Origin: Planctomycetota bacterium
Lineage (GTDB): Bacteria > Planctomycetota > Phycisphaerae > Phycisphaerales > UBA5793
NCBI GenBank assembly: GCA_963205185.1
Contig: CAUJHZ010000076.1
Coordinates: 17,157-81,156, forward strand
Reading direction: 5' to 3'
DNA: 64,000 bases
In this document: positions 16,770-64,000 of the stretch, in pieces
How the letters are laid out: the number at the start of each line of letters is the position of its first letter
How positions within the stretch are numbered: the stretch's first letter is position 1
Made by a program: the position numbers and the translations under genes
Notes under the pieces: generated by a model
Told to the model about the DNA's origin: nothing
Seen by the model: only the letters and a program-made list of their open reading frames with translations
Databases searched by the model: none

Positions 16770-16780
16770 GGCGGCCCTTC

Positions 16781-18058: not shown

Positions 18059-18061
18059 GGA

Positions 18062-19087: not shown

Positions 19088-19132
19088 ATCCCAATCCTCA
19101 CTGGCCTTGCGGGCGCCGATGTCCTGCTGCGC

Positions 19133-20664: not shown

Positions 20665-20716
20665 CGCGGCCTTCCTTTCATCCCGGCGCCGCACCGGTGT
20701 CGGCTGGCGAGCCGCA

Positions 20717-22000
20717 TCATTGGTTGCCCACCGACTCGATCATCTTGACCAGCGGCATGAACAGCGCCACGACGATCGTGCCGACGATCACGCCGAGAAT
20801 CACGACCATGAGCGGTTCGAGCAGCGAGATGAGCGAGCCGACGGCGACTTCGACCTCTTCGTCGTAGTTGTCAGCGACTTTGAGCAGCATCGCGTCGAGG
20901 TCGCCGGTCTCTTCGCCGACGTCCACCATGTTTACGACGATCGCATCCACGACCTTGGTTTCGCGCAGCGGGTTGGCGAAGGACTCGCCCTCGCGGATCG
21001 AGTCGTGCACCTTCGTCAGCGCCTTCTCATACACGTAGTTGCCCGACGTGTCGCGCGTGATCATGATTGCTTCGAGAATCGGCACGCCGGCCGAAATGAG
21101 GGTTCCCAGCGTTCGCGTGAATCGGGCGACCGTCGCCTTCTTGATCAGCGGACCGACCAGCGGCAGGTACAGCTTGATTCGATCGACTACGGCCCGCCCC
21201 GGCTCGGTCTTGCGCACCAGTTTGATGAACAGGAACGCAATGAACGGCGAGAAAATAACCCACACGGCTCCAGGGATCGTCTGCCCCGGATCGGCCGCGG
21301 CCATCCATCGGCTCGTGTCAATGAGCCACACGGTCAGGCCGGGCAGCTCGATCTCGAAGTCGATGAAGATCTCCTGGAACTTGGGAATGACGAACACCAT
21401 GATGCCCGAGACGATGAGCACCGCGATGCTGATGACCGCCGCCGGGTAGATCATGGCGCCGCGAATCTTCGCCCGCAGCCGCTGGGCCTTTTCGAGAAAG
21501 TCCGCCAGGCGCTGCAGAATGAGGTCAAGCACGCCGCCGACCTCGCCGGCCGCCACCATCTTGACGTACAACCGGTCGAACGCCTTGGGCTGTTTGGCCA
21601 TCGCGTCTGAAAGCGTGCTGCCGCCTTCGACGTCTTCGGCGATCTCGCCGATGATGTTCTTCATCATGCCCGGCTTCTGCTGCTGTTCGAGCACCTGCAG
21701 CGAACGCAGCAGCGAGAGGCCGGCGTCCTGCAGGGTGGACAACTGCCGCGTGAACTGCGTGAGCGTCTTGACCTTCACGCGACCGATGTTGATCGAGATC
21801 TCGCCCTTCTTCTTCTTTCGCTTGGTCGTTTTGGCGGCTTCGGTCTTGGGCCCGCCCTTGCTCTTGCGCTCGCGCACCGACGTTGGGAAGAATCCCTGGC
21901 TTTTGATCTTGGTGATCGCCTCGTCGCTGGTGCCGGCGTCAATCTCGCCCTTGCGAGGCTTGCCGGACGCGTCGAGCGCTTCATACGCGAATGTGGGCAT
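20717..22000 (-). CDS. pilC: Type IV pilus / T2SS inner-membrane platform protein PilC/GspF
   Basis: FTRQLSTLQDAGL.L, GEVGG.LD..L.RLA, AMIYP, GEETGDLD.ML.KVAD.Y, LLEP. Confidence 0.95.
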   Translation of the reverse strand: MPTFAYEALDASGKPRKGEIDAGTSDEAITKIKSQGFFPTSVRERKSKGGPKTEAAKTTKRKKKKGEISINIGRVKVKTLTQFTRQLSTLQDAGLSLLRSLQVLEQQQKPGMMKNIIGEIAEDVEGGSTLSDAMAKQPKAFDRLYVKMVAAGEVGGVLDLILQRLADFLEKAQRLRAKIRGAMIYPAAVISIAVLIVSGIMVFVIPKFQEIFIDFEIELPGLTVWLIDTSRWMAAADPGQTIPGAVWVIFSPFIAFLFIKLVRKTEPGRAVVDRIKLYLPLVGPLIKKATVARFTRTLGTLISAGVPILEAIMITRDTSGNYVYEKALTKVHDSIREGESFANPLRETKVVDAIVVNMVDVGEETGDLDAMLLKVADNYDEEVEVAVGSLISLLEPLMVVILGVIVGTIVVALFMPLVKMIESVGNQ

Positions 22001-22102
22001 GGTGGCTGCTCCGAATGCCGATGCGGCGATGCTCGCCGCCTGTCTGATCTTCGTTCAACCGACCGTCGCCCGCGGCGACGCGCCGATCACTCCCCGCCTG
22101 GG

Positions 22103-23836
22103 CTAATCCTCTTCGCTGATCGTCTCGCGAATCACTTCGTCGATCGTCGTCTGTCCTTCGTAGATCGCGTTCAGACCCGACTCGCGCAGGCTCCGCATGC
22201 CGCGCTTGCGGGACTCGGCCCGAAGCACGCCCACGCTCGCCTGTTTCATGATCATCTCGCGGATGTCGTCGTCGATCGTCATGATCTCGAAGATGGCCAT
22301 GCGACCCTTGAAGCCCGAGTTGTTGCACGCGTCGCAGCCCTTGCCGCGGAAGAACGTGCGGCCGCGCACGTCTTCGGGCCGCAGGTCGAGTTCCATCAAC
22401 TCAGCCTCCGTCGGGTTGTACTGCTCCTTGCACTTGACGCAGATGCGCCGCACCAGGCGCTGAGCCACGATCGCTTCGATCGTCGCCGTCAGAAGGAACG
22501 CCTCGAGGCCGAGGTCCAGCAGTCGCACAATCGAACTGGGCGCGTCGTTGGTGTGCAGCGTGGTGAACACAAGGTGGCCGGTGAGCGACGCCTGGACGGC
22601 GATCTCCGCCGTCTCCTTGTCGCGGATTTCGCCCACAAGGATGATGTCCGGATCCTGACGCAGAAAGCTGCGCAGCGTCCGCGCGAAGGTCAGGCCGATT
22701 TCCGCGTTCATCTGCACCTGGCAGAGGCCGTCGATGTCGTATTCGACCGGGTCCTCGGCCGTGAGGATTTTGACTTCCGGCGTGTTCAGGGTGTTGAGCG
22801 CCGCGTAGAGCGTCGTCGTCTTGCCGCTGCCGGTCGGCCCCGTCACGATGATGATGCCGTTGGGCTTGTTGATGAGCTGGCGGAACTTCTGGAACTCGTC
22901 CTGCCGCAGCCCGATCTTGTCGAGGCTCAACTGCACGTTGGAGCGGTCGAGCACGCGCATGACCACCGACTCGCCGAAGATCGTCGGGAGCACCGAGACG
23001 CGCAAGTCCACTGGATTGCCGCCGACCTGCAGTTCGATGCGGCCGTCCTGAGGCAGGCGGCGCTCGGCGATGTCGAGGTTCGACATGACCTTGATGCGCG
23101 AGGCAATCGGCATCGCCAGATACGTCGGCGGGGGGATCATCTCGTAGAGAACGCCGTCGATGCGGTAGCGCATCTTGAATTCATCTTCGAACGGCTCGAA
23201 GTGGATGTCCGACGCCCGGTCGCGGATCGCCTGGAGCAGAACGAGGTTGATGAGTTTGATGACCTGGTTATCCTGCGCCGCCGCCGCGATCTCGCTCAGG
23301 TCGATCGAATCGCCGCGACCCTGGAACTGGGCCAGATCCTCGCGACCGGCGAGTTCGTCGTACATCGACGTCAGGCCGGTGTCGGCGGTGGAATAGTGCT
23401 TCTTGATGAACTCGGTGACCTGCTTCTCGGGCGCCAGCACGGCCGTGACCTTGAAGCCCATGAGCAGGCGGAGGTCATCGACCGCCGAAAAGTTGTCGGG
23501 CGACTTGATGGCGACGGTGATGTGGCGGCCCTTGGCCTCGAAGTCGATCGGCGCGACCTGGTAGGCATTGGCCGACACGGCGGGCAGCGCCGCGATCGCC
23601 TCTTCGTTCACCGGAAGCGACTCCAGATCCACCAGCTCCATACCCGCCTGGTACGCCAGCGCTTTGAGGATGTCCTCTTCCTTGATATAGCCGAGTTCGC
23701 AAAGCGCCTCGCCGAGGCGACACTTGCGCTTCTTCTGGAGGGCGAGGCCCTCGTAGACCTGCTCGCGGGACACCTTGCCCATCTTGGTCAGGACGCGTCC
23801 GAACTTCCGTCCTTTGTATTCTGAAAGATCTGCCAT
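22103..23836 (-). CDS. pilB: Pilus assembly ATPase PilB/GspE (copy 1) with MshEN-like N-terminus
   Basis: ASDIHFEP, GPTGSGKTTT, LRQDPDIILVGEIRD, TGHLV..TLHTN, tetra-Cys motif. Start set at MADLS. Confidence 0.95.
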   Translation of the reverse strand: MADLSEYKGRKFGRVLTKMGKVSREQVYEGLALQKKRKCRLGEALCELGYIKEEDILKALAYQAGMELVDLESLPVNEEAIAALPAVSANAYQVAPIDFEAKGRHITVAIKSPDNFSAVDDLRLLMGFKVTAVLAPEKQVTEFIKKHYSTADTGLTSMYDELAGREDLAQFQGRGDSIDLSEIAAAAQDNQVIKLINLVLLQAIRDRASDIHFEPFEDEFKMRYRIDGVLYEMIPPPTYLAMPIASRIKVMSNLDIAERRLPQDGRIELQVGGNPVDLRVSVLPTIFGESVVMRVLDRSNVQLSLDKIGLRQDEFQKFRQLINKPNGIIIVTGPTGSGKTTTLYAALNTLNTPEVKILTAEDPVEYDIDGLCQVQMNAEIGLTFARTLRSFLRQDPDIILVGEIRDKETAEIAVQASLTGHLVFTTLHTNDAPSSIVRLLDLGLEAFLLTATIEAIVAQRLVRRICVKCKEQYNPTEAELMELDLRPEDVRGRTFFRGKGCDACNNSGFKGRMAIFEIMTIDDDIREMIMKQASVGVLRAESRKRGMRSLRESGLNAIYEGQTTIDEVIRETISEED

Positions 23837-24213
23837 GAGCCCGCTTTCACAGTTGGGCAACTCGGGAGTGGTCCGGCACGCTGTGCCTCGCACCGGGCCA
23901 CCCCCGGCTACCTGATTCCATTATTGCCGCAAACCCAAAGTCCAACAACCCACAAAAACGAATTGAAACGTTATTTCTCGTAGATTTCAGTGCTCTTTGG
24001 CGATTTCTGAGCCGTGTTGCTCGGCCGAAGGTCCTCGCCCCGTGAATTGTCCGACGCGACAGAGGAAGCCCGAACCGGCGCTGAACCTGTCGGGGCACGC
24101 CTTCTTCGCACGACCATGCGCATCGGGGACCGCTGAGGTTCCATCACCCGAAAGAGTGAGTCCACCAGAGTTATGTACAAGAGAGTTGATCCGCTCTGGA
24201 CCGATCGTCCGGC

Positions 24214-25323
24214 TCACTCTTCCGACTCGTCGAGTTCCGTGCGTCCCACCACTCCGCCGGAGCGGTGCACTTTTTCCGTAAGATCGCTCGGATTCTTGCC
24301 CTTGTCGATCATCTCGTCGGCCGAGATCATGCCGCGCTCGTACAGCGACCAGAGGTGGTCGTCGAGCAGCTGCATGCCGAACTTCTTGCCGGTCTGGATC
24401 GCGGAGTCGATGCGGAAGACCTTGTTCTCGCGGATGAGGTTGGCAATCGCGGGGGTGACCACAAGAAACTCGTAGGCGGCCACGCGGCCGGGCTTGTCCA
24501 CCCGGGCCAGCAGCGCCTGGCTGAGGATGCAGATCAGCGTCACCGACAACTGCACTCGCACCTGCTCCTGCTGATTCGTCGGGAAGGCGTCGATGACGCG
24601 GTTGATCGTGCCCGCGGCACCGGTGGTGTGGAGGGTGGCAAAGACCAAGTGGCCTGTTTCGGCGGCGGTAATGGCCGCTTCGATCGTTTCGAGGTCGCGC
24701 ATTTCGCCGACGAGGATCACATCCGGGTCCTGACGCAGCACGCGGCGGAGCGACTCCGAGAACGAGGGCACATCCACCCCCACTTCGCGCTGATTCACGA
24801 TCGACTTCTTGTGCGGGTGGTAGTATTCGATAGGGTCTTCGATCGTCACAATGTGGTGGTCCATGTTGACGTTGATGTAGTCAATCATGGTCGCCAGCGA
24901 GGTCGTCTTGCCCGAGCCGGTCGGCCCGGTCACGAGAAACAGGCCGCGCGGCCGGCGGATCAGTTCCTTGCAGATCGGAGGCAGGCCGATCTGCTCGAAT
25001 GACATGATTCGGTTGGGGATTTGGCGGAGCACCAGCGAAAGCGAGCCCTTCTGGCGGAAGACGGACACGCGAAAGCGGGCCTCTTCGCCGTAGGCAAAGC
25101 CGAAGTCGCAGGTGCCCTCTTCCTGGAGTTCCTGCTGGCTGCGCTCCGAGGTGATCGACTTCATGAGCGCCATCGTGTCGTCGGGGCCGAGGGTCTTGGT
25201 ATTCAGCTCGCGCAGGCGGCCGTGAAGGCGGATGGTCGGCTTTCGCCCGACGGCCAGGTGGAGGTCCGAAGCGCCCTGGCGGATGACGGTTTCGAGCAGT
25301 CGGTCAATCTGAAGCGTGGACAT
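24214..25323 (-). CDS. pilT: Type IV pilus retraction ATPase PilT
   Basis: GASDLHL, GPTGSGKTTSLATMID, TIEDPIEY, LRQDPDVILVGEMRD, AETGHLVFATLHT, AIANLIRE. Confidence 0.96.
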   Translation of the reverse strand: MSTLQIDRLLETVIRQGASDLHLAVGRKPTIRLHGRLRELNTKTLGPDDTMALMKSITSERSQQELQEEGTCDFGFAYGEEARFRVSVFRQKGSLSLVLRQIPNRIMSFEQIGLPPICKELIRRPRGLFLVTGPTGSGKTTSLATMIDYINVNMDHHIVTIEDPIEYYHPHKKSIVNQREVGVDVPSFSESLRRVLRQDPDVILVGEMRDLETIEAAITAAETGHLVFATLHTTGAAGTINRVIDAFPTNQQEQVRVQLSVTLICILSQALLARVDKPGRVAAYEFLVVTPAIANLIRENKVFRIDSAIQTGKKFGMQLLDDHLWSLYERGMISADEMIDKGKNPSDLTEKVHRSGGVVGRTELDESEE

Positions 25324-25403
25324 CGGTGGTTGCTTTCTTCAGGAAGTCCTGGGCTCGACCCGCCGAGCCGATATGCGTGTTTCAACACCCGGGCGCGAAT
25401 CCC

Positions 25404-27131
25404 TTATTCCTCGACAATGCCCGCCACCTGCGCCACGCGGGCGATCTCAGCCGGCGTGGTCACGCCGTTGAGAATCTTGATGCGCCCGTCGCCGAGCAGC
25501 GGCCGCATGCCCGCTGCGAGCGCTTCGGCTCGAATGCCCGCCAGCGACTCGCGCCGGAACGCCATGTCGCGCAGCGTGGAGTTCATCAGCATCAGTTCAA
25601 AGATGGCCTTTCGGCCGCGGTAGCCGGTGCCGCCGCAGTTGGTGCAGCCGACCGCCTTGTAGATGGTCTTCGTCTGGCGATCCTGGGCGGTGATGCCGCA
25701 CAGATTGAGGAACTTCGGATCGGGCTTGTCATCGGCCGCGCGGCACTTGGGGCACAGCACGCGGATGAGCCGCTGGGCCATGACCGCCTGGATCGAACTG
25801 GCTACCAGGAACGGCGGCACGCCCATGTCGATCAGACGCGTGATCGCGGAAGGTGCGTCATTGGTGTGCAGCGTGCTGAAGACGAGGTGGCCCGTGAGCG
25901 CGGCCTGGATGGCGACTTCGGCCACTTCGCGGTCGCGGATTTCGCCCACGAGCACGATGTTGGGCGCCTGGCGCAGCATCGATCGGAGAATCGACGCGAA
26001 CGTGAGGCCGATCTTCTCACGCACCTGGCACTGATTGATGCCGGTGAAGTTGTATTCGACGGGGTCTTCCGCCGTGATGATCTTCTTGTCCGGGCGGTTG
26101 AGCACCGACAGCGCCGAATAGAGCGTGGTCGTCTTGCCCGAGCCGGTGGGCCCGGTGACGAGGAAGATGCCGTTGGGCCGGCGGATGATGCGATTGAAGA
26201 TTTCGAGATTGTCTCGTTCGAAACCGAGGTTTTCGAGGCCGATGCGCACCGAATCGGGGCGCAGAATACGCAGCACGATCGACTCGCCGTGGTACGCCGG
26301 ACAGGAACTCACGCGGAAGTCGATCATCGCGTTGTCCACGTTCATCTTGATGCGGCCGTCCTGCGGCAGCCGCTTCTCGGCAATGTTGACGCCCGCCATG
26401 AGTTTGATGCGGGCCAGCACCGCGTTCTGCATGCGCTTCGGGAGATCATCGCGGATGTGGCACACGCCGTCGATGCGATAGCGCAAGCGCACGCGATCGA
26501 CGAAGGGCTCGACGTGAATATCCGAGGCCCGGCTTCGCACGGCTTCGGTGATGATGCGGCTGACCAGTTTGATGACCGGCGCATCTTCGCCCGCCGCAAT
26601 GTCGATCGACGAGTCGACCGACTTGTCCATGGTGACGTCGATGGACTCGGTGACGAACGAGCCGGCCTCTTCGAACATCGACTTGCCTCCGGCAGGCGAG
26701 CCGAGGCGATTGTCGATGTAGGCCTTGATGTCGCTGCGCGGCGAGACCTTGGTGTCGATCTCGCAGTTCAGGCGGAAGCGCAGCATGTCGAGCAACTGCA
26801 GATCCATCGGATCGTGAATCAGCAGTTTCAGCCGGCCGTTGGTCTTGTTGAGCGGCAGGACAAAGTGCTTCTTGATGAGATCTTCCGGCAGCAGATCGAA
26901 CTGAACTCTTTCAGTGGCGCCCGGCGCGTTGAGATCAAAGTACTCAAGGCCGAACTGCTGGGCGATCGCCTTGGCGCAGTCCGATTCCTTGACGAAACCG
27001 AGATCCACGAGGGTGTCGCCGAGCCGCTTGCCCTGGCCCTTGGCCACTTCGAGGGCTTGGGCGAGTTGTTTGTCGTCGAGTTTGCCCTCTTGAACGAGGA
27101 GTTCCCCGAGTTTGAGGCGCTTTCTAGCCAT
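25404..27131 (-). CDS. pilB: Pilus assembly ATPase PilB/GspE (copy 2) with MshEN-like N-terminus
   Basis: KLGELLV..G/RLGDTLVDLG repeats, ASDIHVEP, GPTGSGKTTT, LRQAPNIVLVGEIRD, CPKC..CTNC. Confidence 0.93.
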   Translation of the reverse strand: MARKRLKLGELLVQEGKLDDKQLAQALEVAKGQGKRLGDTLVDLGFVKESDCAKAIAQQFGLEYFDLNAPGATERVQFDLLPEDLIKKHFVLPLNKTNGRLKLLIHDPMDLQLLDMLRFRLNCEIDTKVSPRSDIKAYIDNRLGSPAGGKSMFEEAGSFVTESIDVTMDKSVDSSIDIAAGEDAPVIKLVSRIITEAVRSRASDIHVEPFVDRVRLRYRIDGVCHIRDDLPKRMQNAVLARIKLMAGVNIAEKRLPQDGRIKMNVDNAMIDFRVSSCPAYHGESIVLRILRPDSVRIGLENLGFERDNLEIFNRIIRRPNGIFLVTGPTGSGKTTTLYSALSVLNRPDKKIITAEDPVEYNFTGINQCQVREKIGLTFASILRSMLRQAPNIVLVGEIRDREVAEVAIQAALTGHLVFSTLHTNDAPSAITRLIDMGVPPFLVASSIQAVMAQRLIRVLCPKCRAADDKPDPKFLNLCGITAQDRQTKTIYKAVGCTNCGGTGYRGRKAIFELMLMNSTLRDMAFRRESLAGIRAEALAAGMRPLLGDGRIKILNGVTTPAEIARVAQVAGIVEE

Positions 27132-44379: not shown

Positions 44380-45396
44380 TCAGACGCGATCTTCAGGTCG
44401 GATCGGCCGGACAATCTTGAGAGCCCGGTTGCCGCGATGCTGGCCGATGTGCGCGAGCATCTTCTTCTCGCCCTCCACGGTGAGCACCACCGGCCGCGTC
44501 GCGGGCTTGTCGGTGACGATCAGATCACCCACGGAGAGGTTCATCAGGTCGTCGAGGGTGAGCGTGGTCTCGGCCAGGGTTCCGCCCACGCTCAGGACCG
44601 CGCCCGCGAGCGAATGCGTGATGCGCTTGGCGAACTCGATGTCATCATCATCGCGCTGCACGTTGAACCACGACTGGGCGCTGAGTTCGGGCATGAGCGG
44701 CTCGATGACGTTGAACGGAATGCACAGATTCATCGTGCCGGCCCGCGCGCCCATCTTGATCTCAAAGCCGATGACGACGACGACTTCATTGGGAGGCACG
44801 ATCTGCACAAGGTGCGGGTTGCTCTCGGTTTCGACCAGGGTGAAGTCCAGCCGCCGAATGCCTTCCCACGCCTCGCTCAGCGCCTTAAGCGCGCGGCCGA
44901 GCACGACGCTGAGGAGTTTGATCTCGATGACCGTCAGCGCACGCTGGGGGATGAACAGTTCGTTGCTCGCTCCGCCGAGCATCCGATCGACGAGCGGGTA
45001 GACGATCAGCGGACTCAGTTCGAGGCAGATCATGCCCTCGAGCTGTTCGGCGCGAATGAGATTGAACGCCGTCGGATTGGGCAGGCTGGAAATGAACTCC
45101 GAATAGGTCATCTGCTCGGTCGTCGCGACTTTGACTTCGACGATGGTGCGGATGAACCCGGAGATCGAAGCGCCGAAGATGCGGCCGAACGATTCGTGCA
45201 GCGTCTCGAGGGAGCGCATCTGCTCCTTGGACACGCGCTCGGGGCGCTTGAAGTCGTACGCCCGGATCTCGACCTGGTCGAGGTCGCGGCGGTGTCGCGA
45301 GAAGAGTTGCCCGGCGGTGGTTTCCTCCTCGATGGCGCCGGAGTCGACCGCCGCGAGCAGGGCGTCAATATCGGATTGGTCGAGGATGTCGTTCAT
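44380..45396 (-). CDS. fliM: Flagellar motor switch protein FliM
   Basis: ILDQSDIDALL (CheY-binding), YDFKRP.R, GG, ETESNP..VQIV, C-terminal SpoA/FliN-like domain. Confidence 0.95.
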   Translation of the reverse strand: MNDILDQSDIDALLAAVDSGAIEEETTAGQLFSRHRRDLDQVEIRAYDFKRPERVSKEQMRSLETLHESFGRIFGASISGFIRTIVEVKVATTEQMTYSEFISSLPNPTAFNLIRAEQLEGMICLELSPLIVYPLVDRMLGGASNELFIPQRALTVIEIKLLSVVLGRALKALSEAWEGIRRLDFTLVETESNPHLVQIVPPNEVVVVIGFEIKMGARAGTMNLCIPFNVIEPLMPELSAQSWFNVQRDDDDIEFAKRITHSLAGAVLSVGGTLAETTLTLDDLMNLSVGDLIVTDKPATRPVVLTVEGEKKMLAHIGQHRGNRALKIVRPIRPEDRV

Positions 45397-45525
45397 GCAC
45401 TGACCGCCGGCCCTTCGCGCGCAGCCCAACCGGAACGGCACGCGGCCCTACTCGCTTTATCGGACACCGCTGCGGGGCCACTTGAACCCGGGCCGCCGCG
45501 GCTCGTAGAAGATAAGCCGCGTCGC

Positions 45526-52216: not shown

Positions 52217-53956
52217 TCACCACCCTGCCGGCGCCCCGCCCTTGCGCGGATCGCTCGCCGCGTCCCAGCCGTCGCCGCGGCGCCGAATCAGCTGCACAAC
52301 ACCGACATCGCCGCGGCGGCCGACGTCATGGCCGAATTCGCGCATGGCTTCCATCGTCGCCGCATCGGTCCAGGAGTCTTCGAACTGCAGCACATCGGGC
52401 ATCCACTGGTGGTGGAATCTCGGTGCGGCGACTGCCTCGCCCGCCGACGAGTCATGCAGGACCACATCCAGCAGCGTCTGCAGCGTCGCGGAGATGATGC
52501 GCGGCCCGCCCGAACCGCCCACGACCACCTCGACCAAGCCGTCTTCGCCGAGCACGATCGTCGGTGACATGCTCGAGAGGGGCCACTTGCCGCCTTCGGG
52601 TAGATTGCGCTGCGACTGCTGCAGGCCGAAGGCATTTCGCTCGCCGGGCACGGTGAGGAAGTCGTCCATCTCGTTGTTGAGCATGAAGCCGTATTCCGGC
52701 ACTGGCAGCAGCGAGCCAAACGAGAGGTTGATCGTTTCGGTGCACGCCACGGCGTTGCCCCATTCATCCACCACGCCGAAGTGGCTGGTGCCCGCGTCGA
52801 TGGGCAGACCCTCTCTGCTGCCGTAACTCTCGGGCGGCTGCGTGCGGAGCGGATCGATTCGGCGTGCGAGAATGTCGAGATAGGTTTCGCTGAGCAGACT
52901 CGTAGCCGGGACGTTGGCGAAGCGCTCGTCGCCGAGCCACTCGGCGCGGTCGGCGAATGCGTGCTTCATTGCTTCGACGACAAGATGGATGTAAGCAGGA
53001 GACTGCGGCGCCGCCTGTTCGACATCCATCCAGCGCCTCTCGACAAGGCCAAGCGTCTCAAGCGTCGCGATTCCGCCGCTCGAGGGCAGCGGCATCGCCA
53101 GCACGGTACGGCCGCGGAACGTGCCGCGCAACGGCTGCGACAGGCGCGGCTGATACTGCGCGAGATCTTCTGCCGACATCTGCGGGCACGCCGCTGCGAC
53201 GGCCTGGCCGATCTCCCCGGCGTAGAAAGCCGGCGCCCCGTCGCGCGCGATCAGCCGCAGCGTTCGCGCCAATTCCGGCTGGCGCAGCGTCTGGCCGACT
53301 TTCGGCTCGCCGTCGAAGAGAAAGCGGTGGTAAAACCACTCAAACCGATCCGCCCCTACGAGGTCGATCCACTCCGGGTGCGCGCGAATGTCATCGAGCA
53401 CTTCCCCAGCGCTGGCGACGTAATCGGCGTCGATGGCGAAGCCCTGCTCGGCGGCTTCGATGGCCGGCTTGAGCACGGTGGCGCGATCGAGCGTGCCGTA
53501 GTTCTCGAGCGCGGTCATCAACCCGGCGACGGTGCCCGGCACACCCACGGCGTGCGGCCCGTAGCGCGAAGCGCCGGGTGTATCGAGTTGCACGTAGTAA
53601 TCGGGCCCAACGGCGGCCGGTGCGGTCTCGCGGTAGGTGATCGCCACGCTCTGCGTCGGCATGGGCGCATCGGAGGCGATGTGCACGAGCATGAACCCGC
53701 CGCCGCCAAGGCCGCAACTGTACGGCCGCACGACGGCGAGGCAGAAGCTCGTGGCGACGGCGGCATCCACGGCGTTGCCCCCGCGCATCAGCATGTCGAG
53801 CCCCGCCTGCGAAGCAATCGCATGATCGGCAGCGACGACGGCGCGGGGGTAGGTTCCATCCGCCACGCTGAGGTTCGTTGCCACTGCACCGCAGCCGGCG
53901 GCGACAAGGACGAAAGCGGCGCAGACGACTGTTGCACTTCGAAGAAACTTAGGCAT
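52217..53956 (-). CDS. ggt: Gamma-glutamyltransferase
   Basis: GGNAVDAAVA, GLGGGGF, GVPGTVAG, catalytic Thr in GTSHF, LNNEMDDF, P.SSMSPT, GGSGGPRI, D.R+.G. Confidence 0.96.
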   Translation of the reverse strand: MPKFLRSATVVCAAFVLVAAGCGAVATNLSVADGTYPRAVVAADHAIASQAGLDMLMRGGNAVDAAVATSFCLAVVRPYSCGLGGGGFMLVHIASDAPMPTQSVAITYRETAPAAVGPDYYVQLDTPGASRYGPHAVGVPGTVAGLMTALENYGTLDRATVLKPAIEAAEQGFAIDADYVASAGEVLDDIRAHPEWIDLVGADRFEWFYHRFLFDGEPKVGQTLRQPELARTLRLIARDGAPAFYAGEIGQAVAAACPQMSAEDLAQYQPRLSQPLRGTFRGRTVLAMPLPSSGGIATLETLGLVERRWMDVEQAAPQSPAYIHLVVEAMKHAFADRAEWLGDERFANVPATSLLSETYLDILARRIDPLRTQPPESYGSREGLPIDAGTSHFGVVDEWGNAVACTETINLSFGSLLPVPEYGFMLNNEMDDFLTVPGERNAFGLQQSQRNLPEGGKWPLSSMSPTIVLGEDGLVEVVVGGSGGPRIISATLQTLLDVVLHDSSAGEAVAAPRFHHQWMPDVLQFEDSWTDAATMEAMREFGHDVGRRGDVGVVQLIRRRGDGWDAASDPRKGGAPAGW

Positions 53957-57306: not shown

Positions 57307-60300
57307 CTACTGATCACCGGGCCGCACATCGCGGCCGCCAAACAGTGAGTAGAGCGCCGGCAGAACGAACAGCGTCAGGAGGTTGTCCGAGAGGATGCCG
57401 CCGATGACGACCGTGGCCAGCGGCCGCTGCACCTCGGCCCCGACTCCGGTGTTGAGGGCCATGGGCACAAACCCCAGCGCGGCGACGAGGCCGGTCATGA
57501 GAATCGGCCGCAGACGGATCAGGCGCGTCTGCTCGATCGCCTCGCTGATGGGCGCACCGGCCGCGATACGCTGGCGAATGGTGGATACGAGCACGAGGCC
57601 CGAGAGCATCGACACGCCCGAGACGGCGATGAACCCGACGGCTGCGGAAATCGTGAAGTCGAGATCGCGCAGGAGCAGTGCCGCCACCCCGCCGAACGCC
57701 GCGAAAGGCGCGCCGGTTAGCACCAGCAGCGAATCGACGATGCTGCCGATGCTGAGATAGAGCAGCAGCGCGATCGACGCAATGACGAGCGGGATAATGA
57801 AGAACAAGCGGCGGGTCGCGCGGTCGTAGTGCTCGAACTGCCCGCCAAAGGCAACGTAGTAGCCCGGCGGCATCGGCACGTCGGCGGTGATGCGCTGGCG
57901 CGCTTCGGCGACAAATCCGCCCAGGTCGCGGCCGCGCACATTGGCCTGGACGACGATGCGGCGCTTGCCCCACTCGCGGTTGACCACGGTCGGGCCGTCC
58001 ACGAAGGACACCCGCGCCAGGCGGGCAAGCGGAAGCCGCCCGCCGTCGGCTGTAGGCACGAGAATCTCGCCCACGGCGTCGGGATCATTGCGATATCGAT
58101 CCGGCAGTTCGAGGGTGAGATCAAAGCGGCGCTGGCCGTCACGGACATGACCGATGCGCACCTCGCCGAGCGCTTCGACGATCTCAAGCACGTGGCGCGC
58201 CGGGACGCCGTATCGGGCGATAGCGTCCTGATCGACGCGGATTTCGAGCACCGGCGCGCCCGTCACCTGCTCGACGGTGACCGAATCGGCGCCTGGAATG
58301 GAATCGACGATCGACTGCACCTGCGCTGCGATCGTCGCCAGTTGTTCGATCTCGTCGCCAAAAATCATGAGTCCGACGTCGGCGCGAACGCCGGCGACCA
58401 TTTCATTCATCCGCATCTCGATGGGCTGCGTCATAATGGCCTTGATTCCCGGCAGCGACTGGAGATCGGTCGAGATCATCGCCGACAGCTCGGCCTGCGA
58501 CGCGGCACGTGTCCAGTTCGCGCGAGGATTGAGCGTGATGTACACGTCGTTCTGCTCCAAGCCCATCGGATCGGTGGCTACGGCCGGCGTGCCCAGGCGC
58601 GTCCAGATGCGATCGATTTCGTCTGGATACCGGTCAAGCAGAAACTGCTCAATGCGAGTGTTGTATTCAACGGACTGGTCGATCGAGACGCCGGCGAGCC
58701 GCACGACGTTCGCCGCGATGGCTTCTTCGTAGAGGCGCGGAATGAACGCCGTGCCGAGCCGCCCGGCCAGCACAACGCACAGGCCCACGACGAGCACACC
58801 GAAGGCGGCGACGAGCAAGCGAAACCTGAGCGCGACGTGGATGAACGGCCGGTACACCCACTGCATGGAGCGGACGAGCCAGTTCTCGCGCTCGTGCATG
58901 CGCCGGCTGATGAGGAGGCTGCAGAGGACTGGCGTCAGCGTGAGCGAGAAGATGAGCGAACTGAGAAGCGCGAACACGACGGTGAGCGCCATCGGGCGAA
59001 ACATCTTGCCCTCGACGCCTTCGAGAAGCAGGATCGGCAGGAACACCACCATGATGATCAGTTCGCCGTACATCGTCGGCTTGCGCACTTCAACCGAAGC
59101 GTCGCGCACGATGTCGAGTATCGGGGTCTTCGCGCCCGCGTCATTGTCGTGGCCGATGCGGCGGACGCAGTTCTCGACGATGATGACCGAACTGTCCACG
59201 ACGAGCCCGAAATCGATGGCGCCGAGGCTGAGCAGGCTGGCGGCGATGCCGAATTGCATCATCATCGAAAACGAGAACAGCATCGCCAGCGGGATCGCCA
59301 GCGCCACGATCAATCCCGCCCGGAGATTGCCCAGGAAAACAAACAGCACCGCCACGACGAAAAGCGCGCCCAGCAGCAGGTTCTCCGACACGGTGTGAAT
59401 GACGTGATCGACAAGGTACGTGCGCTGGTAGACCACCTCCACATCGATGTTGTCGGGCAGCGACGGGCGGATCTGCTCGAGCCGCTTGGCGAGGAGGTTG
59501 GTCACCTCGTGGCTGTTCTCACCCATGAGCATGAACCCGAGCCCGAGCACCGCCTCGCCGTCACCCTGGGCCGTGACGGCGCCGCGCCGGATCTCATGGC
59601 CTTCGCGCACCTCGGCCACGTCGCGCACGCGCACCGGCGTGCCGCCTACAGCCTTGATGACCGCGTTGGCGATCTGATCGAGCGTCGTGGTCAGCGCCAG
59701 CCCGTGCACCATCATCGACTCGCCGCCGCGCGTCACCTGCCCGCCGCCGACGCTGGCGTTGTTCTTCTCGAGGGCCGCGGCGATCTCATCGAGCGTGAGG
59801 CTGAACTTGATCAGTTGCGTCGGCTCGACGACGACCTCGAACTGCTTGACCAGTCCGCCCCACGTGTTGACCTCCGCCACGCCGGGCACCTGGCGCAGCT
59901 GCGGCGCGATGATCCAATCCTGTGCCGTGGTAAGTTCGGTCAGGCTTGCCGGGCTGTCGCCCTTGCCGACGACAAGGTAGTGGAAGACCTCGCCCAGGCC
60001 GGTCGCCACCGGACCCATTTCCGGCCGTTCGATTCCTTCAGGCAATTGAATTCCGCCGAGCCGCTCGTTGATCAACTGGCGCGCGAAGTAGATGTCGGTG
60101 CCATCTTCGAACGTAACGGTGACCTGCGACAGGCCGAATTTGGATACCGATCGAACCCCGGAGAGGCCGGGAAGGCCGGAGATGGCGACTTCGACCGGAA
60201 ACGTGATCTGCTGCTCGATCTCCTCGGGCGAGAGCGCCGGCGCCACGGTGTTGATCTGCACCTGCACCGGCGTCGTGTCGGGGAAGGCGTCGATGGGCAG

Positions 60301-60399
60301 ATGCGCCATCGAGTACACCCCCCATGCAACGAACACCAGCGTGCCAAGGATGACGAGCAGCCGGTGGCGAAGCGACCAGTTGATGATCCAGTTCAACAT
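57307..60399 (-). CDS. czcA: Heavy-metal efflux RND permease (CzcA/CusA family), 1030 aa
   Basis: L.IDAFPD.T..QV, SKFGLSQV, GAIDFG..VD.S...VEN, EG+MF.PMA.T, RLRPILMT, GAEVQRPLA.VVIGG. Start set at MLNWI. Confidence 0.93.
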   Translation of the reverse strand: MLNWIINWSLRHRLLVILGTLVFVAWGVYSMAHLPIDAFPDTTPVQVQINTVAPALSPEEIEQQITFPVEVAISGLPGLSGVRSVSKFGLSQVTVTFEDGTDIYFARQLINERLGGIQLPEGIERPEMGPVATGLGEVFHYLVVGKGDSPASLTELTTAQDWIIAPQLRQVPGVAEVNTWGGLVKQFEVVVEPTQLIKFSLTLDEIAAALEKNNASVGGGQVTRGGESMMVHGLALTTTLDQIANAVIKAVGGTPVRVRDVAEVREGHEIRRGAVTAQGDGEAVLGLGFMLMGENSHEVTNLLAKRLEQIRPSLPDNIDVEVVYQRTYLVDHVIHTVSENLLLGALFVVAVLFVFLGNLRAGLIVALAIPLAMLFSFSMMMQFGIAASLLSLGAIDFGLVVDSSVIIVENCVRRIGHDNDAGAKTPILDIVRDASVEVRKPTMYGELIIMVVFLPILLLEGVEGKMFRPMALTVVFALLSSLIFSLTLTPVLCSLLISRRMHERENWLVRSMQWVYRPFIHVALRFRLLVAAFGVLVVGLCVVLAGRLGTAFIPRLYEEAIAANVVRLAGVSIDQSVEYNTRIEQFLLDRYPDEIDRIWTRLGTPAVATDPMGLEQNDVYITLNPRANWTRAASQAELSAMISTDLQSLPGIKAIMTQPIEMRMNEMVAGVRADVGLMIFGDEIEQLATIAAQVQSIVDSIPGADSVTVEQVTGAPVLEIRVDQDAIARYGVPARHVLEIVEALGEVRIGHVRDGQRRFDLTLELPDRYRNDPDAVGEILVPTADGGRLPLARLARVSFVDGPTVVNREWGKRRIVVQANVRGRDLGGFVAEARQRITADVPMPPGYYVAFGGQFEHYDRATRRLFFIIPLVIASIALLLYLSIGSIVDSLLVLTGAPFAAFGGVAALLLRDLDFTISAAVGFIAVSGVSMLSGLVLVSTIRQRIAAGAPISEAIEQTRLIRLRPILMTGLVAALGFVPMALNTGVGAEVQRPLATVVIGGILSDNLLTLFVLPALYSLFGGRDVRPGDQ

Positions 60400-60450
60400 C
60401 AGCAGACTCCGGAGGCGTCGGCGCCCGGGCCGGCCCGTGCGCAAGCGCAT

Positions 60451-61953
60451 CTACTTCTTGAGGTGATCCACTTCGCAGCAGCCGGCGCCGACCGAGTTCT
60501 TGAGGATCTCGTTCTTGAGAATGAAACTGCCTCGCGAAACGACGATGTCGCCGGCTTCGAGCCCCTGGAGCACCTCGTAGTGATCGCCTGCGTCAAAGCC
60601 GAGTACGAGCCGGGCCGGCTGAAAAGTGAGCGGATCGGATTCCGACCGGCGGAACGCCACGTTGCAGCAGCCTTCCCACTGCACGGCTTGCTTGGGCAGC
60701 ATGAGCGCGGCCCGCGCCTCGCCCACATCAATCCGGGCCCGCCCGAACATGTGGGCTCGCAGCAGGCCGTCTGAGTTGTCAAACTCGACGCGAGCGCGCA
60801 AGGTGCGCGTCGCCGGATCGAGAGCGGTGCTGATCCACGTGACTCGCCCGGGGAAGACGATGCCCCTGAGCCCGTCGAGCAGGAGCGTCGCCGGCTGGCC
60901 GATCCGCACCGTGGCCAGATCGGCTTCGGCCAGATCGACCATCGCCCACATGGTGCGCGTGTCGCCGATTGTCATGATCGACTGCCCCGGCGCGATGACC
61001 TCGCCCACGACCGCCGAGCGTTCAATCACCGTGCCGTCGAACGCCGCGAGCACCTCCAGCAGCGAAGACGTGTCGCCATCGGACTCGACGGCTGTGATCT
61101 GTTCACTGGTCAAGCCAAGATTGGCCAGCCGCTGACGGGCCCTACTGACGGTGATGCGGGCTTCGGCGAGACGCGTGTTGGCTTCGAGCGCCTCGCGTTC
61201 GATGCCGATGCCCTTTTCGACGAGGTCGCGCTCGCGCTGCGCGTTGGCCTGCCAGAGTTTCATCATCTCGATCGCCTGGAGCAGGTCCGACTTCGCTGAG
61301 CCGAGTTCGGTGGACTCCACAACGGCGATGGCTTCGCCGGCGCGAACGTGCTCGCCGAGGTCTTTGAGAACCGCGGTCACCACGCCCGCCGCCCTTGAGG
61401 AAACGCGCGCATAGCGGTTTGTGTTGTACGTGACCTGCGCGTTGCGCTCGATGATGCGCACCAGCGGTCGGGGCGAGACCTCGAAGTACTCGAATCCTGC
61501 CGCAGTCAACGCCTCGGGCGTACTGAGGGTAACCGGTGTCGATGACGTAACGCAGCCCATCGAAGGCTCGCGCTGCCAGCGCAATTCAGCTCCGGCGGCC
61601 GCGGCGCGGCGCGAGAGTTCTTCGCCTGCTCGCGGGTTGCACACCTTGCACTGGGATTCGGGCACTGCATGCTCTTCGCACCAGTCGCCCGCCGCGATGA
61701 ACGCCGCTTTCAGCAGCGGCCTGCACGGCACGCAGAGCGCCTCAGGCACGCCGTGTTCATTGCACATCCCGAGGCGATCGATCCTCGTCGGGTCGCAGAA
61801 CGGGCACTTTGCCTGGTCGATGTCGTGAGGGCAGGTCTGTCCGCTGATCACGGGCTGCTGCCCTGACGCTTCGGGCGTGACGCCGAGCAGGACTGCCCAA
61901 GTCAACGCACAACCGAGCGCGATGAGTGCGGATTGACGGAGCATCGCCATCAT
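60451..61953 (-). CDS. RND periplasmic adaptor (CzcB-like) with N-terminal 9-Cys/3-His module
   Basis: Lipoyl/barrel MFP core (RVSSRAAGVV..V...G..V..G, A.FDGTV.ER, G.VT.I...LD..TRT...R); Cys/His module at 61633-61833; two CC pairs. Confidence 0.88.
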   Translation of the reverse strand: MMAMLRQSALIALGCALTWAVLLGVTPEASGQQPVISGQTCPHDIDQAKCPFCDPTRIDRLGMCNEHGVPEALCVPCRPLLKAAFIAAGDWCEEHAVPESQCKVCNPRAGEELSRRAAAAGAELRWQREPSMGCVTSSTPVTLSTPEALTAAGFEYFEVSPRPLVRIIERNAQVTYNTNRYARVSSRAAGVVTAVLKDLGEHVRAGEAIAVVESTELGSAKSDLLQAIEMMKLWQANAQRERDLVEKGIGIEREALEANTRLAEARITVSRARQRLANLGLTSEQITAVESDGDTSSLLEVLAAFDGTVIERSAVVGEVIAPGQSIMTIGDTRTMWAMVDLAEADLATVRIGQPATLLLDGLRGIVFPGRVTWISTALDPATRTLRARVEFDNSDGLLRAHMFGRARIDVGEARAALMLPKQAVQWEGCCNVAFRRSESDPLTFQPARLVLGFDAGDHYEVLQGLEAGDIVVSRGSFILKNEILKNSVGAGCCEVDHLKK

Positions 61954-62576
61954 CCACCTCCTTGTTTCGAGGAGTGATCAAGATCGGGATTGCATTGCAG
62001 GCACTGCGACTCGGGCGTCTCGTGCTCGGCGCACCAGTCGCCCTTGGCCACGAACGCTGTCTTGAGATAAGGCCGGCACTGCACGCACAGCGCCTCGGCG
62101 ATCTCGTGTTCCTTGCAGAAGCCCGCCGACTCGATGAGGCTCGGCGTGCAGAACGGACACTTGGCAGATGCGATACCGTGTTCGCAATTGGCCGGGTCCG
62201 ATCCACTCGGTGCGTCGGCGGGCATGGCGCCGCCGTGCTCGCCCGGCCTGATCTTCGCCGCGAGTTCGGGGTTGCAGGCCATGCACTGCGACTCCGGCGT
62301 GTTGTGCTCGGCGCACCAGTCATCGTTGGCGCGGAACGCAGCATTGAGGTACGGCCGGCACTTGGCACAGAGCGCCTCGGCGACGCCGTGTTCGCCGCAG
62401 AAGCCGTCCGCCGCGACCATTTCGGGGTTGCAGAACGGGCACTTCTCCTGCTTGATCTCGTGCGGGCAGCGACCGTCGGCTGACTGGTCGCTGGAGTTCC
62501 CTGATTCGCCGCAGCCAGCCAACGCGATGCACACGCCGGTCACAAACACGAAAGCAACATGAGCAAGTCTTTGCAT
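61950..62576 (-). CDS. Cys/His-rich lipoprotein made of two tandem 65-aa modules (putative metal-binding protein)
   Basis: Lipobox LAG-C; two copies of CxH-x6-CPFC-x10-CxEH-x6-Cx2C-x13-WCxEH-x6-Cx2C; coupled to neighbours (2-nt gap upstream, ATGA overlap downstream). Confidence 0.85.
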   Translation of the reverse strand: MQRLAHVAFVFVTGVCIALAGCGESGNSSDQSADGRCPHEIKQEKCPFCNPEMVAADGFCGEHGVAEALCAKCRPYLNAAFRANDDWCAEHNTPESQCMACNPELAAKIRPGEHGGAMPADAPSGSDPANCEHGIASAKCPFCTPSLIESAGFCKEHEIAEALCVQCRPYLKTAFVAKGDWCAEHETPESQCLQCNPDLDHSSKQGGG

Positions 62577-62578
62577 GA

Positions 62579-64000
62579 TTAATCCTCCGCCCTGTATTGG
62601 GGCTCCGTGGGTAATGAGTCTTGTCGTTTGAGCGGCGGCGCGCCGGCTGCGGGAATCAGCAGTTCGTCATCGCCGACAATCTGAAACAGGCGCGCCCGGG
62701 CCGCGGCCACCTCGCCGCTGAACTCGATCGCCGTAGTGCGCGCCTCAGTAAGCGTTCGCTGAGCGTCGATGACATCGAGAAATGACGCATGTCCGCCGCC
62801 GTACGCCTCGGTGGTCTGCTCGAACGCCTGTTCGGCCGCGGGCAGGATCTGCGTTCGCACCGCCTCCAGTTGGACGCGCGATGCTTCGTACTCGCCGTGC
62901 GCCGCCGCCAGCCGGCTGAGCAAATCAGTCTCCAGCGCCTCACGGTGCTGCCTGGCCTGCATGAGCGCGTAGCGAGCTGCGAGAATCTCGCCGCGCCGAT
63001 CATCCCAGATCGGCAGCGTCATGCCGATGCCCAGTTCGTAGATTGGCTCATTGCTCTCGCCGCGATAGCCCACGCCGGCATGCAACTCCAGATCGGGTGT
63101 GCGCTCCGCTTTGATCGCCTGCAGGCGCGCCTCGGCCGCATCGATTTCGCGATCGGCCGCGCGGAGCGCGGGATGGTCCCGCCGCAGATGCGATTGGAAC
63201 GCCACCAGATCGAGCCCTGGCGGCGAAGTGTCGAGGGATCCTTCGAGCCGCGTCACATCCACTGCCGCTCCACCGATCGCCAGCGAAAGCTGCGCCGCTG
63301 TGGCGACTTGCTCCTTGTCCAGCCGGGTGCGAAGCAGCCGAATGCGGTACACCTCGATCCCCGCCTTCGTCGCTTCCGTGCGCGGCGCTGCGCGCGCTTC
63401 AAAGCGCGCCTGCGCCGACGCAAGCGTCTGCTCGGCCAGGTCGGCGAGGCTCGCATACAAGCGGCTTGTTTCGCGGATCGTCACCAGACGATTGTGCAGC
63501 AGCGCCACTTCGCTCAGCACCTCTCGCTCGACGACTTGCACTCGCGCCTCGCTCACGGCCTGTTCGGCGCGCGCCGCGTCACGCCCTTCGTCGAGCCGAC
63601 TGCCGATCACGATCGGCTGCGTGATGCTCAGGACGGTGGAGCCCTCATTGAGCACGCCTGGCCCGAACGGAACTTCTTCCGATGAAACTCCGACTGTGGG
63701 GTTGGGGTAAAGCGAAGATTGCAGCGCTCGACCCGCCGCAACTCCGACACCGCTTCGAGCGGCGGCGATGCGCGGATTGAACCGCCGGGCCAGTTCCCAA
63801 AGATCAGCCAGACCAACAGGCCCATCGACGGGAAGTGCAGACGAGGCGACGTCGGCCGTCTGCGAGGCGTCCTGAAGGTCCAGCGGCGCCGGCACCCCGC
63901 GGCCCACGAGTTCCGCGATCGCTGCGCGCTCCGACGGCGGCGAATGCAGGCCGCGCGATGCGCACGACGCCGCGCACATCGCCAGGATGACTGCCGCACC
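62579..64000 (-). CDS. TolC/CzcC family outer-membrane efflux protein; start lies beyond the window end
   Basis: Two OEP repeats (YPNP.V, Q.I.IG..L, P.L.L..G, G.TLPIWD..RG.I, AY..G...FLDVIDAQR). Frame open to nt 64000 within the signal peptide (GAAVILAMCAASC). Confidence 0.9.
   Translation of the reverse strand, partial: GAAVILAMCAASCASRGLHSPPSERAAIAELVGRGVPAPLDLQDASQTADVASSALPVDGPVGLADLWELARRFNPRIAAARSGVGVAAGRALQSSLYPNPTVGVSSEEVPFGPGVLNEGSTVLSITQPIVIGSRLDEGRDAARAEQAVSEARVQVVEREVLSEVALLHNRLVTIRETSRLYASLADLAEQTLASAQARFEARAAPRTEATKAGIEVYRIRLLRTRLDKEQVATAAQLSLAIGGAAVDVTRLEGSLDTSPPGLDLVAFQSHLRRDHPALRAADREIDAAEARLQAIKAERTPDLELHAGVGYRGESNEPIYELGIGMTLPIWDDRRGEILAARYALMQARQHREALETDLLSRLAAAHGEYEASRVQLEAVRTQILPAAEQAFEQTTEAYGGGHASFLDVIDAQRTLTEARTTAIEFSGEVAAARARLFQIVGDDELLIPAAGAPPLKRQDSLPTEPQYRAED

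Follow-up and report, generated by a model that had tools for sequence, protein, structure and literature searches.

Accessory metal-binding domains decide how the heavy-metal-efflux pumps of the resistance-nodulation-division type (HME-RND) find and select their substrates, and those understood so far are the Met/His-based set for copper and silver: CusF, the N-terminus of CusB and the C-terminal domain of SilB. The adaptors of HME systems carry extra N- or C-terminal metal-binding domains that are also found as stand-alone proteins, as in the case of the SilB C-terminal domain and CusF, and the N-terminus of CusB receives metal from CusF and activates CusA (PMC4446572; PMC8277102). We analyzed a stretch of DNA of 64,000 nucleotides from a Planctomycetota bacterium of the Phycisphaerae (GenBank assembly GCA_963205185.1, contig CAUJHZ010000076.1, positions 17,157 to 81,156 of the forward strand), herein the window, in which an operon for a predicted HME-RND system encodes a 208-residue lipoprotein with six Cys3His units. 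We consider it fairly probable that this protein is a lipid-anchored Cys3His-array accessory of a CzcCBA/ZneCAB-type pump, one that would capture Zn/Cd-type ions or gate the pump. This reading is favored because the ligands are near-invariant, the units repeat freely, the protein has the marks of Sec export and of a membrane tether, and the units are attached only to adaptors of the metal type. The operon comprises four genes on the reverse strand (57307 to 63979), in the order outer-membrane factor (OMF), lipoprotein, adaptor and RND permease, with the following features.

62579 to 63979, reverse strand: OMF, TolC/CzcC-like (Pfam OEP, 165 bits in two stretches; weak NCBIfam matches to IhpA and TolC)
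61950 to 62576, reverse strand: 208-residue lipoprotein, six Cys3His units as two three-unit modules (open reading frame, motif and alignment of 41 homologues)
62511 to 62576, reverse strand: signal peptide of the lipoprotein, ending in the lipobox L-A-G-C (Cys22; the Cys is invariant in the alignment of 41)
62274 to 62468, reverse strand: module 1, lipoprotein residues 37–101, units CPHEIKQEKCPFC, CGEHGVAEALCAKC and CAEHNTPESQCMAC (motif)
62187 to 62273, reverse strand: inter-module linker, residues 102–130, with an invariant His-Gly (PGEHG; alignment of 41)
61992 to 62186, reverse strand: module 2, residues 131–195, units CEHGIASAKCPFC, CKEHEIAEALCVQC and CAEHETPESQCLQC (motif)
60451 to 61953, reverse strand: CzcB/ZneB-like periplasmic adaptor (membrane fusion protein), 500 residues (Pfam HlyD_D23, 171 bits)
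61639 to 61833, reverse strand: module 3, adaptor residues 41–105, units CPHDIDQAKCPFC, CNEHGVPEALCVPC and CEEHAVPESQCKVC (motif)
57307 to 60450, reverse strand: HME-RND permease, CzcA/ZneA-like (NCBIfam TIGR00914, 1154.5 bits against a cut-off of 701; Pfam ACR_tran, 894 bits)

The lipoprotein begins with MQRLAHVAFVFVTGVCIALAG, followed by Cys22 of a canonical lipobox. The Sec-type signal and the lipobox ([LVI][ASTVI][GAS]C, here CIALAG directly before Cys22) are those of a bacterial lipoprotein, the lipobox cysteine is found in 41 of 41 homologues, and acylation is predicted. The signal peptide contains no twin-arginine motif, and therefore export by the Sec route is read from the sequence. 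The motif C-x(1-2)-H-x6-C-x2-C begins at residues 37, 60, 88, 131, 154 and 182. In both modules the distance from the first to the last Cys is exactly 65 residues, and identity between the modules, which are offset by 94 residues (282 bp), is 72% for DNA and 63% for protein. When the module of the adaptor is included, all three are pairwise 63% identical in protein and 66–72% in DNA. The two lipoprotein modules hold 18 Cys and 6 His, the complete lipoprotein 20 Cys and 9 His. Residues H113 and G114 of the linker (numbered without Met1) are invariant across the 41 homologues. A six-frame scan of the window located the unit motif nine times in the lipoprotein and adaptor genes and once elsewhere, hence the array is not a product of chance.

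The gene for the lipoprotein is tightly coupled to its neighbors. Two nucleotides separate the OMF stop codon from its ATG, which is preceded by GGAGG, and its own stop codon overlaps the adaptor start (ATGA), with AAGGAGG upstream. Both parts of an earlier reading of this DNA from the letters alone (the original prediction) are thus recovered: a coupled 208-residue lipoprotein with the lipobox LAG-C between a TolC-like gene and the adaptor, as the open reading frame, the two-nucleotide gap and the ATGA overlap bear out, and within it two modules 282 bp apart, similar in DNA, each of 65 residues and three units, with 18 Cys and 6 His in all, every one of which was reproduced from the open reading frame.

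A word-indexed protein search with the lipoprotein gave 349 relatives. The best 120 of these, from metagenome bins of Phycisphaerae and other Planctomycetota, are all 194–221 residues long, and 116 of the 120 carry six units. In an alignment of 41 relatives (52–78% identity) the 18 Cys, the 6 His and the lipobox Cys are all invariant, as is the Asp-Trp that precedes each third unit. In 97 full module instances, drawn from the representatives of clusters at 50% identity, conservation is 96–100% in the ligand columns and 98–100% for the His of the unit. The repeat unit, DWC-x-[EG]-H-x2-PES-x-C-x2-C and then a short helix, recurs about every 28 residues. The number of such units in a relative ranges from 2 to 9; each unit has three Cys and one His without exception, and the cysteines of these proteins lie almost wholly within the units. 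P0181 has four units and 12 Cys in all, every one of them inside a unit; P0183 and P0237 are runs of the single unit; P0264 repeats the third-unit type only; and P0124 has nine units on one adaptor. The original prediction had taken the 9-Cys/3-His module as the basic repeat. The relatives correct this point: the evolutionary building block is, on their comparison, the single Cys3His knuckle of about 28 residues. Since this self-contained unit has an odd number of Cys and an invariant His, a Cys3His metal site is favored over a disulfide-only design.

We turn to the distribution of the knuckles. A profile of the module (70 columns) was scored against 1.84 billion cluster representatives and matched 637 proteins (50%-identity clusters) at E ≤ 1e-3, 330 of them at E ≤ 1e-10. 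Among the best 150 representatives, the module is fused to the N-terminus of a HlyD/CusB-type adaptor in 68 and is placed inside the adaptor core in 3; the adaptor core is not matched in the remaining 79, which are stand-alone proteins or fragments with a length of 359 residues at most. The fusion partner was the adaptor in 71 of 71 fusions. Ten long or unusual proteins were scanned against Pfam, and nine are HlyD/CusB-type adaptors without any other family, while P0122 (359 residues) had no match. The units inserted in the core fall on the C-terminal side of the adaptor-core span, at residues 331–451 of P0150 and 347–496 of P0264; P0219 is the third case.

A scan of GTDB, with one genome per species, located at least 533 coding stretches with the module in about nine phyla, mostly of uncultured organisms. 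The hosts are Phycisphaerae and other Planctomycetota, Acidobacteriota, Verrucomicrobiota/Lentisphaeria, Eisenbacteria, Sumerlaeota, Armatimonadota, Desulfobacterota, Fibrobacterota and Krumholzibacteriota. Eighty loci were taken from these stretches for counts of the gene neighborhood. In all 80, the module belongs to a CzcB-like adaptor, as a fused part, or to the product of a small open reading frame directly upstream of such an adaptor. Downstream, 72 of the loci have a CzcA-like RND gene, and several of the remaining loci run off their contig. The link to metal transport that was anticipated for the homologues is therefore borne out, and the sequence-level association with metal efflux systems is very strong.

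The placement of the units is interchangeable across the loci: on the free lipoprotein, on the adaptor, or on both. The commonest architecture is a single module, fused to the adaptor only (23 of 80 loci), followed by a six-unit lipoprotein with an adaptor that lacks the module (14 loci; the adaptors of loci L001 and L003 are without it), a one-module stand-alone protein together with a fused module (11 loci), and the type of the window, with six and three units (8 loci). The remaining loci have other arrangements, with up to eight units on one adaptor. The order OMF, lipoprotein, CzcB, CzcA recurs on independent contigs. The stand-alone forms are always membrane-tethered, by a lipobox in Phycisphaerae and by an N-terminal transmembrane (TM) helix in other phyla. 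The distribution indicates that the lipoprotein is a Phycisphaerae-specific split-off or duplicate of what is, in most lineages, an N-terminal domain of the adaptor. Some of the TM-anchored one-module stand-alone proteins outside the Phycisphaerae have His-rich runs before the module, such as HDTSDGHDHDAPDGHGHHAADGHGH (L036:5315-5863; also L043:3781-4263, L049:1271-1753 and L033:5477-5866).

Several stand-alone lipoproteins (P0003, P0005, P0010, P0018 and others) are named "cobalt-zinc-cadmium efflux system membrane fusion protein" in the JGI annotation, and others "hypothetical protein". The former label is probably an error, which presumably arose from orthology models that take in the N-terminal module of the fused adaptors.

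The knuckle family is without a name in the curated collections, Pfam-A and NCBIfam, as had been suspected from the letters of the window. Over the Cys module no Pfam-A model (2025 copy) exceeded its threshold, the best reaching 13.7 bits against a cut-off of 27, and no NCBIfam 20.0 model reached threshold over the lipoprotein. Matches of the lipoprotein to zf-C6H2 (E = 0.15) and Acc5b_avian_CoV (E = 0.057) were dismissed as sub-threshold noise. For module-bearing adaptors the precomputed Pfam assignments list adaptor-core domains only. A sequence search of the PDB with the single lipoprotein gave one chance match (E = 0.83), and the module profile gave none at E ≤ 10. An AlphaFold2 model computed from the alignment of 41 relatives has block-mean values of the predicted local distance difference test (pLDDT) of 89–97 in both modules, dropping to 58–68 over model residues 111–130 of the linker. 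In the predicted unit a beta-bridge is followed by a short helix, and then come the CxxC and a further helix. Comparison of this model with the PDB by Foldseek, a method that is weak on small metal-held domains, gave a best E of 5.3 with a TM-score of 0.10. Full-text literature searches for Cys-rich, CxxC or zinc-finger domains of HME-RND adaptors or lipoproteins yielded general reviews only, in which the domain is not described. A mention of CxxC in a paper on cobalt in Geobacter concerned cytochromes and not the knuckle domain.

The partner genes place the system in a known class. Every sequence-level feature of the HME-RND tripartite class (CzcCBA/ZneCAB type) that we tested was present, including adjacent and co-directional genes for the HlyD/CzcB adaptor and the OMF. 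By these features the operon is an HME-RND efflux system of the CzcCBA/ZneCAB type, with efflux its predicted function. The OMF gene is the first operon gene visible in the window, which ends 21 bp upstream of the OMF start; the position of a regulator would lie beyond that end. The open reading frame of the RND permease was called from 60450, abutting the adaptor stop codon. Met18, at 60399, is probably the true start, because it is kept in 61 of 65 homologues, and it would leave a spacer of 51 nucleotides.

The Zn(II) HME-RND system ZneCAB of Cupriavidus metallidurans provides the closest solved structures for both the pump and the adaptor, with 632 bits for ZneA (557 bits for CusA) and 122 bits for ZneB (3lnn). 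The classification of HME-RND motifs by Nies allows the substrate class to be read from TM helix 4. This helix in the RND of the window is DFGLVVDSSVIIVEN, aligned to DFGIIVDGAIVVMEN of ZneA, whereas CusA has AVGAMVDAAIVMIEN. The charge-relay motif DFG-x3-D-x6-EN is present, with the D-D-E that it shares with ZneA, and not the CusA-like A-x-G-x3-D. The positions of Met573, Met623 and Met672 of CusA are occupied by V, Q and E. As helix 4 fits the motif rules, the pump is a predicted exporter of divalent cations. The pumps of the clade also possess methionines of their own in the periplasmic portion: Met629, Met679 and Met684 (approximately 58564-58566, 58414-58416 and 58399-58401, reverse strand), in the stretches TDPMG and PIEMRMNEM, are kept in 65, 65 and 64 of 65 pumps. 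They are near acidic residues that align with the periplasmic site of ZneA; they lie in the vicinity of the Met triad of CusA and of the acidic site of ZneA without coinciding with either, and ZneA has acidic or aromatic residues in their place. This pattern suggests a mixed Met/carboxylate entry site.

The adaptor has a hydrophobic anchor at its N-terminus, then one knuckle module and then its core, and scores 144 bits against TIGR01730 of NCBIfam (cut-off 94.9). Beyond its module it contains five further cysteines, which were compared among 79 module-linked adaptors.

61552 to 61554, reverse strand: Cys134, between the module and the adaptor core (79 of 79)
60664 to 60669, reverse strand: Cys429-Cys430 doublet in the C-terminal part of the core (66 and 74 of 79)
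60475 to 60480, reverse strand: Cys492-Cys493 doublet near the C-terminus (78 and 73 of 79)

These cysteines occupy the same columns in the adaptors of L007 to L086. They are absent from ZneB, which has neither the Cys module nor the CC doublets and reads F-Y at the position of Cys429-Cys430, and from four neighboring adaptors not linked to a module, which have 0–4 Cys. The Cys429-Cys430 doublet is inferred by us to be located in the membrane-proximal domain. Together, the five residues may give the adaptor a second thiolate site of its own.

Two further kinds of genes were seen near the operons of the relatives. A metalloregulator of the ArsR/SmtB family is encoded just upstream of the operon in 16 of the 80 loci (NF033788, 73–83 bits against a cut-off of 55), for example at L074:187-570, L077:4075-4458, L046:1206-1577 and L036:3666-4049, with 12 further loci. 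At the N-terminus these regulators have a Cys, which in the closest ones is part of a CxxxC pair, and they also have an ELCVCDL or ECCVCDL helix; we take this combination to be the thiolate alpha3N arrangement known from Cd/Pb/Zn sensors such as CadC. In about 29 of the 80 loci, small Cys-rich open reading frames (115–170 residues, with hydrophobic N-termini and CC and CxxC pairs) are found upstream of the OMF gene (L012:3176-3682, L016:3620-4084, L078:4125-4493, L086:765-1118, L001:7917-8408 and L004:200-580). They had no family match, the one from L004 giving only a sub-threshold DUF2946 (21.1 bits against a cut-off of 23.7), and may represent a further accessory of the same system.

How might such an array work? 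In each knuckle, three Cys thiolates and the imidazole of one His would together bind a thiophilic divalent metal in tetrahedral geometry; Zn(II) and Cd(II) are the likeliest candidates, and Pb or Co are possible. The adaptor would add its three units on a flexible N-terminal tether beside the inner membrane. With approximately six adaptors per pump, a dense membrane-tethered Cys3His array could be assembled around the pump entrance. The array might capture periplasmic metal, to be moved by ligand exchange toward the adaptor core and then to the periplasmic entry site of the pump. Alternatively, it might report metal occupancy to the adaptor and thereby switch the pump on.

A number of considerations weigh against this proposal. 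We infer that metal is bound, which metal it is and in what number, that the thiols stay reduced, and that metal is handed on to the pump, and in which direction. Metal specificity is derived from motif-level similarity to ZneA and from regulators seen only in the relatives, and the controls for the Cys signature of the adaptor are few (four adaptors and ZneB). The periplasm is normally an oxidizing compartment, and no thiol-reducing system, of the Dsb type or other, was seen beside the operon within the window. Cys3His sites usually bind Zn(II) very tightly. Considering this tight binding and the carboxylate-rich entry site of a ZneA-type pump, transfer would run uphill, which favors a role in sensing or gating, or a structural one, over a relay. 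Gating or sensing may thus be the more realistic function, unless the thiols of the adaptor and the methionines of the pump provide a graded path.

Such a path is the core of a bolder version, which we regard as possible and advance only tentatively. In it, the knuckle would be a new autonomous periplasmic metal-binding fold, and the tethered arrays would start an all-thiolate relay for Cd, Zn or Pb to a distinct HME-RND clade. The metal would move from the lipoprotein knuckles to the N-terminal knuckles of the adaptor, on to Cys134 and the CC doublets, and finally to the Met/carboxylate entry site of the RND. The thiols would stay reduced without a dedicated reductase, because the sites would be metal-loaded.

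Among the rival explanations, that of structural zinc knuckles survives best, and we consider it unlikely though deserving of attention. The units would hold Zn permanently and would serve as a rigid spacer or as an interaction module, in assembly or in contact with the OMF, the cell wall or the membrane, with no part in trafficking or sensing. The Cys3His set with a CxxC at the N-terminus of a helix is the classic geometry of structural zinc, as is generally known, the fold is compact and confidently predicted, and the ligands are almost invariant; the tight affinity for Zn, which makes a hand-off to carboxylate sites hard, works in favor of this explanation as well. Yet the copy number of 2–9 and the placement, free, N-terminal or internal, are better suited to a device for capacity or avidity than to a docking module. 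Furthermore, the knuckles associate only with metal-type CzcB/CzcA systems and never with other adaptor classes, and they co-occur with His-rich runs, with the extra adaptor cysteines and with regulators of the thiolate-type ArsR kind.

The second rival, a metallothionein-like periplasmic sponge or buffer, appears improbable to us. A sponge would sequester toxic metal on its own, co-expressed with the pump and without interacting with it. The density of sites (6 per lipoprotein, 9 per operon pair) and the variable copy number are what such a protein would have, yet in the architecture seen most often the module is covalently fused to the adaptor, and this implies that it acts at the pump. Six sites in 208 residues within a rigid fold are unlike the clusters of metallothioneins, there is no Pfam metallothionein match, and the membrane tether limits the capacity. 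The metallothionein-like metal sponge put forward in the original prediction is a poor fit for a rigid, confidently folded and membrane-tethered unit that is joined to the adaptor.

A disulfide-rich or redox-responsive domain without metal, be it a stable knot or a thiol-redox sensor, is less probable still. The Sec-type signal would deliver the protein to the periplasm, and no dedicated reductase was seen nearby, which agrees with such a domain. An odd three Cys per unit, in any number of units, does not, and the His so strongly conserved in the unit would have no role in a disulfide scaffold, nor would one account for a linkage exclusive to metal pumps. A site for a redox cofactor, whether a [2Fe-2S] cluster bound by 3Cys-1His as in mitoNEET or c-type heme at a CxxCH, is highly improbable. 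Three Cys and one His are a known ligand set for [2Fe-2S], and CxxCH occurs in the third unit of a few relatives (QCVQCHP in P0007). However, a pre-assembled cluster could not be exported within a protein that has no twin-arginine motif, the CxxC is followed by Asn in the window (in the family, by N in 48% and by K in 15%), and there is no Pfam cytochrome or CDGSH match. As a candidate in its own right, a c-type cytochrome was set aside, since His after the CxxC occurs in a minority of relatives only and the CxxCH is not conserved.

Elsewhere in the window, the genes downstream of the pump (M24 peptidase, AccB, AccC and a gamma-glutamyltranspeptidase lipoprotein) were considered as parts of the system and rejected, as they are not kept beside the operon in the closest relative. 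The gamma-glutamyltranspeptidase (52217-53956, reverse strand; Pfam, 505 bits; lipobox-like VAAGCG), 3.3 kb downstream of the pump, is probably unrelated to the operon. A run of genes at 15141-27131 (reverse strand), with prepilin-like N-termini (GFTLVELLVV and RGFTLIEVL) and large ATPase-sized open reading frames, resembles a cluster for type IV pili or a type II secretion-like system. FliM is encoded at 44380-45441.

Should a lipid-anchored Cys3His accessory be the correct reading, it would give divalent-cation pumps a solution that is based on thiolates, built from repeats and tethered to the membrane. It would also provide structural and bio-inorganic work with a compact new metal-binding fold and with a test case for the survival of Cys sites in an oxidizing compartment. 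The family is invisible to current annotation and is a candidate for a new Pfam/InterPro entry. The knuckle is also a marker of a distinct pump clade, defined by the CC doublets of the adaptor and by Met629, Met679 and Met684 of the pump.

Among described systems, the C-terminal domain of SilB and CusF are, like the knuckle, small periplasmic domains in HME-RND operons, either free or fused to the adaptor (PMC4446572), and they bind metal, as the knuckle probably does. The knuckle presumably shares their logic of feeding or activating the pump. CusF is a soluble beta-barrel of the oligonucleotide/oligosaccharide-binding (OB) fold with a Met2His(Trp) site for Cu(I)/Ag(I), whereas the knuckle is a 28-residue Cys3His unit repeated 2–9 times; unlike CusF, it is membrane-tethered, it accompanies a ZneA-like divalent pump, and its fusion is mostly to the N-terminus of the adaptor. 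The two resemble each other in neither sequence nor fold, and assignment of the lipoprotein to CusF/CusF_Ec was rejected, with no Pfam match at E ≤ 1, predicted short helices and beta-bridges, and Cys/His ligands. The N-terminus of CusB (Met21, Met36 and Met38) binds metal, as the fused module is predicted to, and like that module it extends an HME adaptor at its membrane-proximal end. However, it is a short, largely disordered, Met-based segment with a single site, in contrast to the folded and repeated Cys3His domains found here. The His-rich N-terminus of CzcB compares with the module in the same way, as a short and largely disordered segment that is His-based.

Outside the HME-RND systems, MerP (GMTCxxC, Hg), CueP and CopG (Cu) demonstrate that Cys-based metal sites are workable in the periplasm, with other folds and motifs and no known attachment to RND adaptors. 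An HMA/MerP domain was excluded, there being no PF00403 or CopG match in Pfam and a motif different from GMxCxxC. A bacterial metallothionein (SmtA/BmtA) was likewise set aside: Pfam gave no match, and the protein has a signal peptide and lipobox, with discrete Cys3His units and no cluster motif. Zinc knuckles, zinc ribbons and treble clefs share with the unit the short beta-bridge, the CxxC at the start of a helix and four ligands within about 14 residues, and they differ in being cytoplasmic binders of nucleic acids or proteins with other spacing. What is new in this locus is a widespread and unannotated domain, and what is known already is the functional logic it sits within. By analogy, the lipoprotein is best filed beside CusF, the CusB N-terminus and the SilB C-terminal domain, as a comparable accessory that differs from them in fold, ligands, repeats and anchor.

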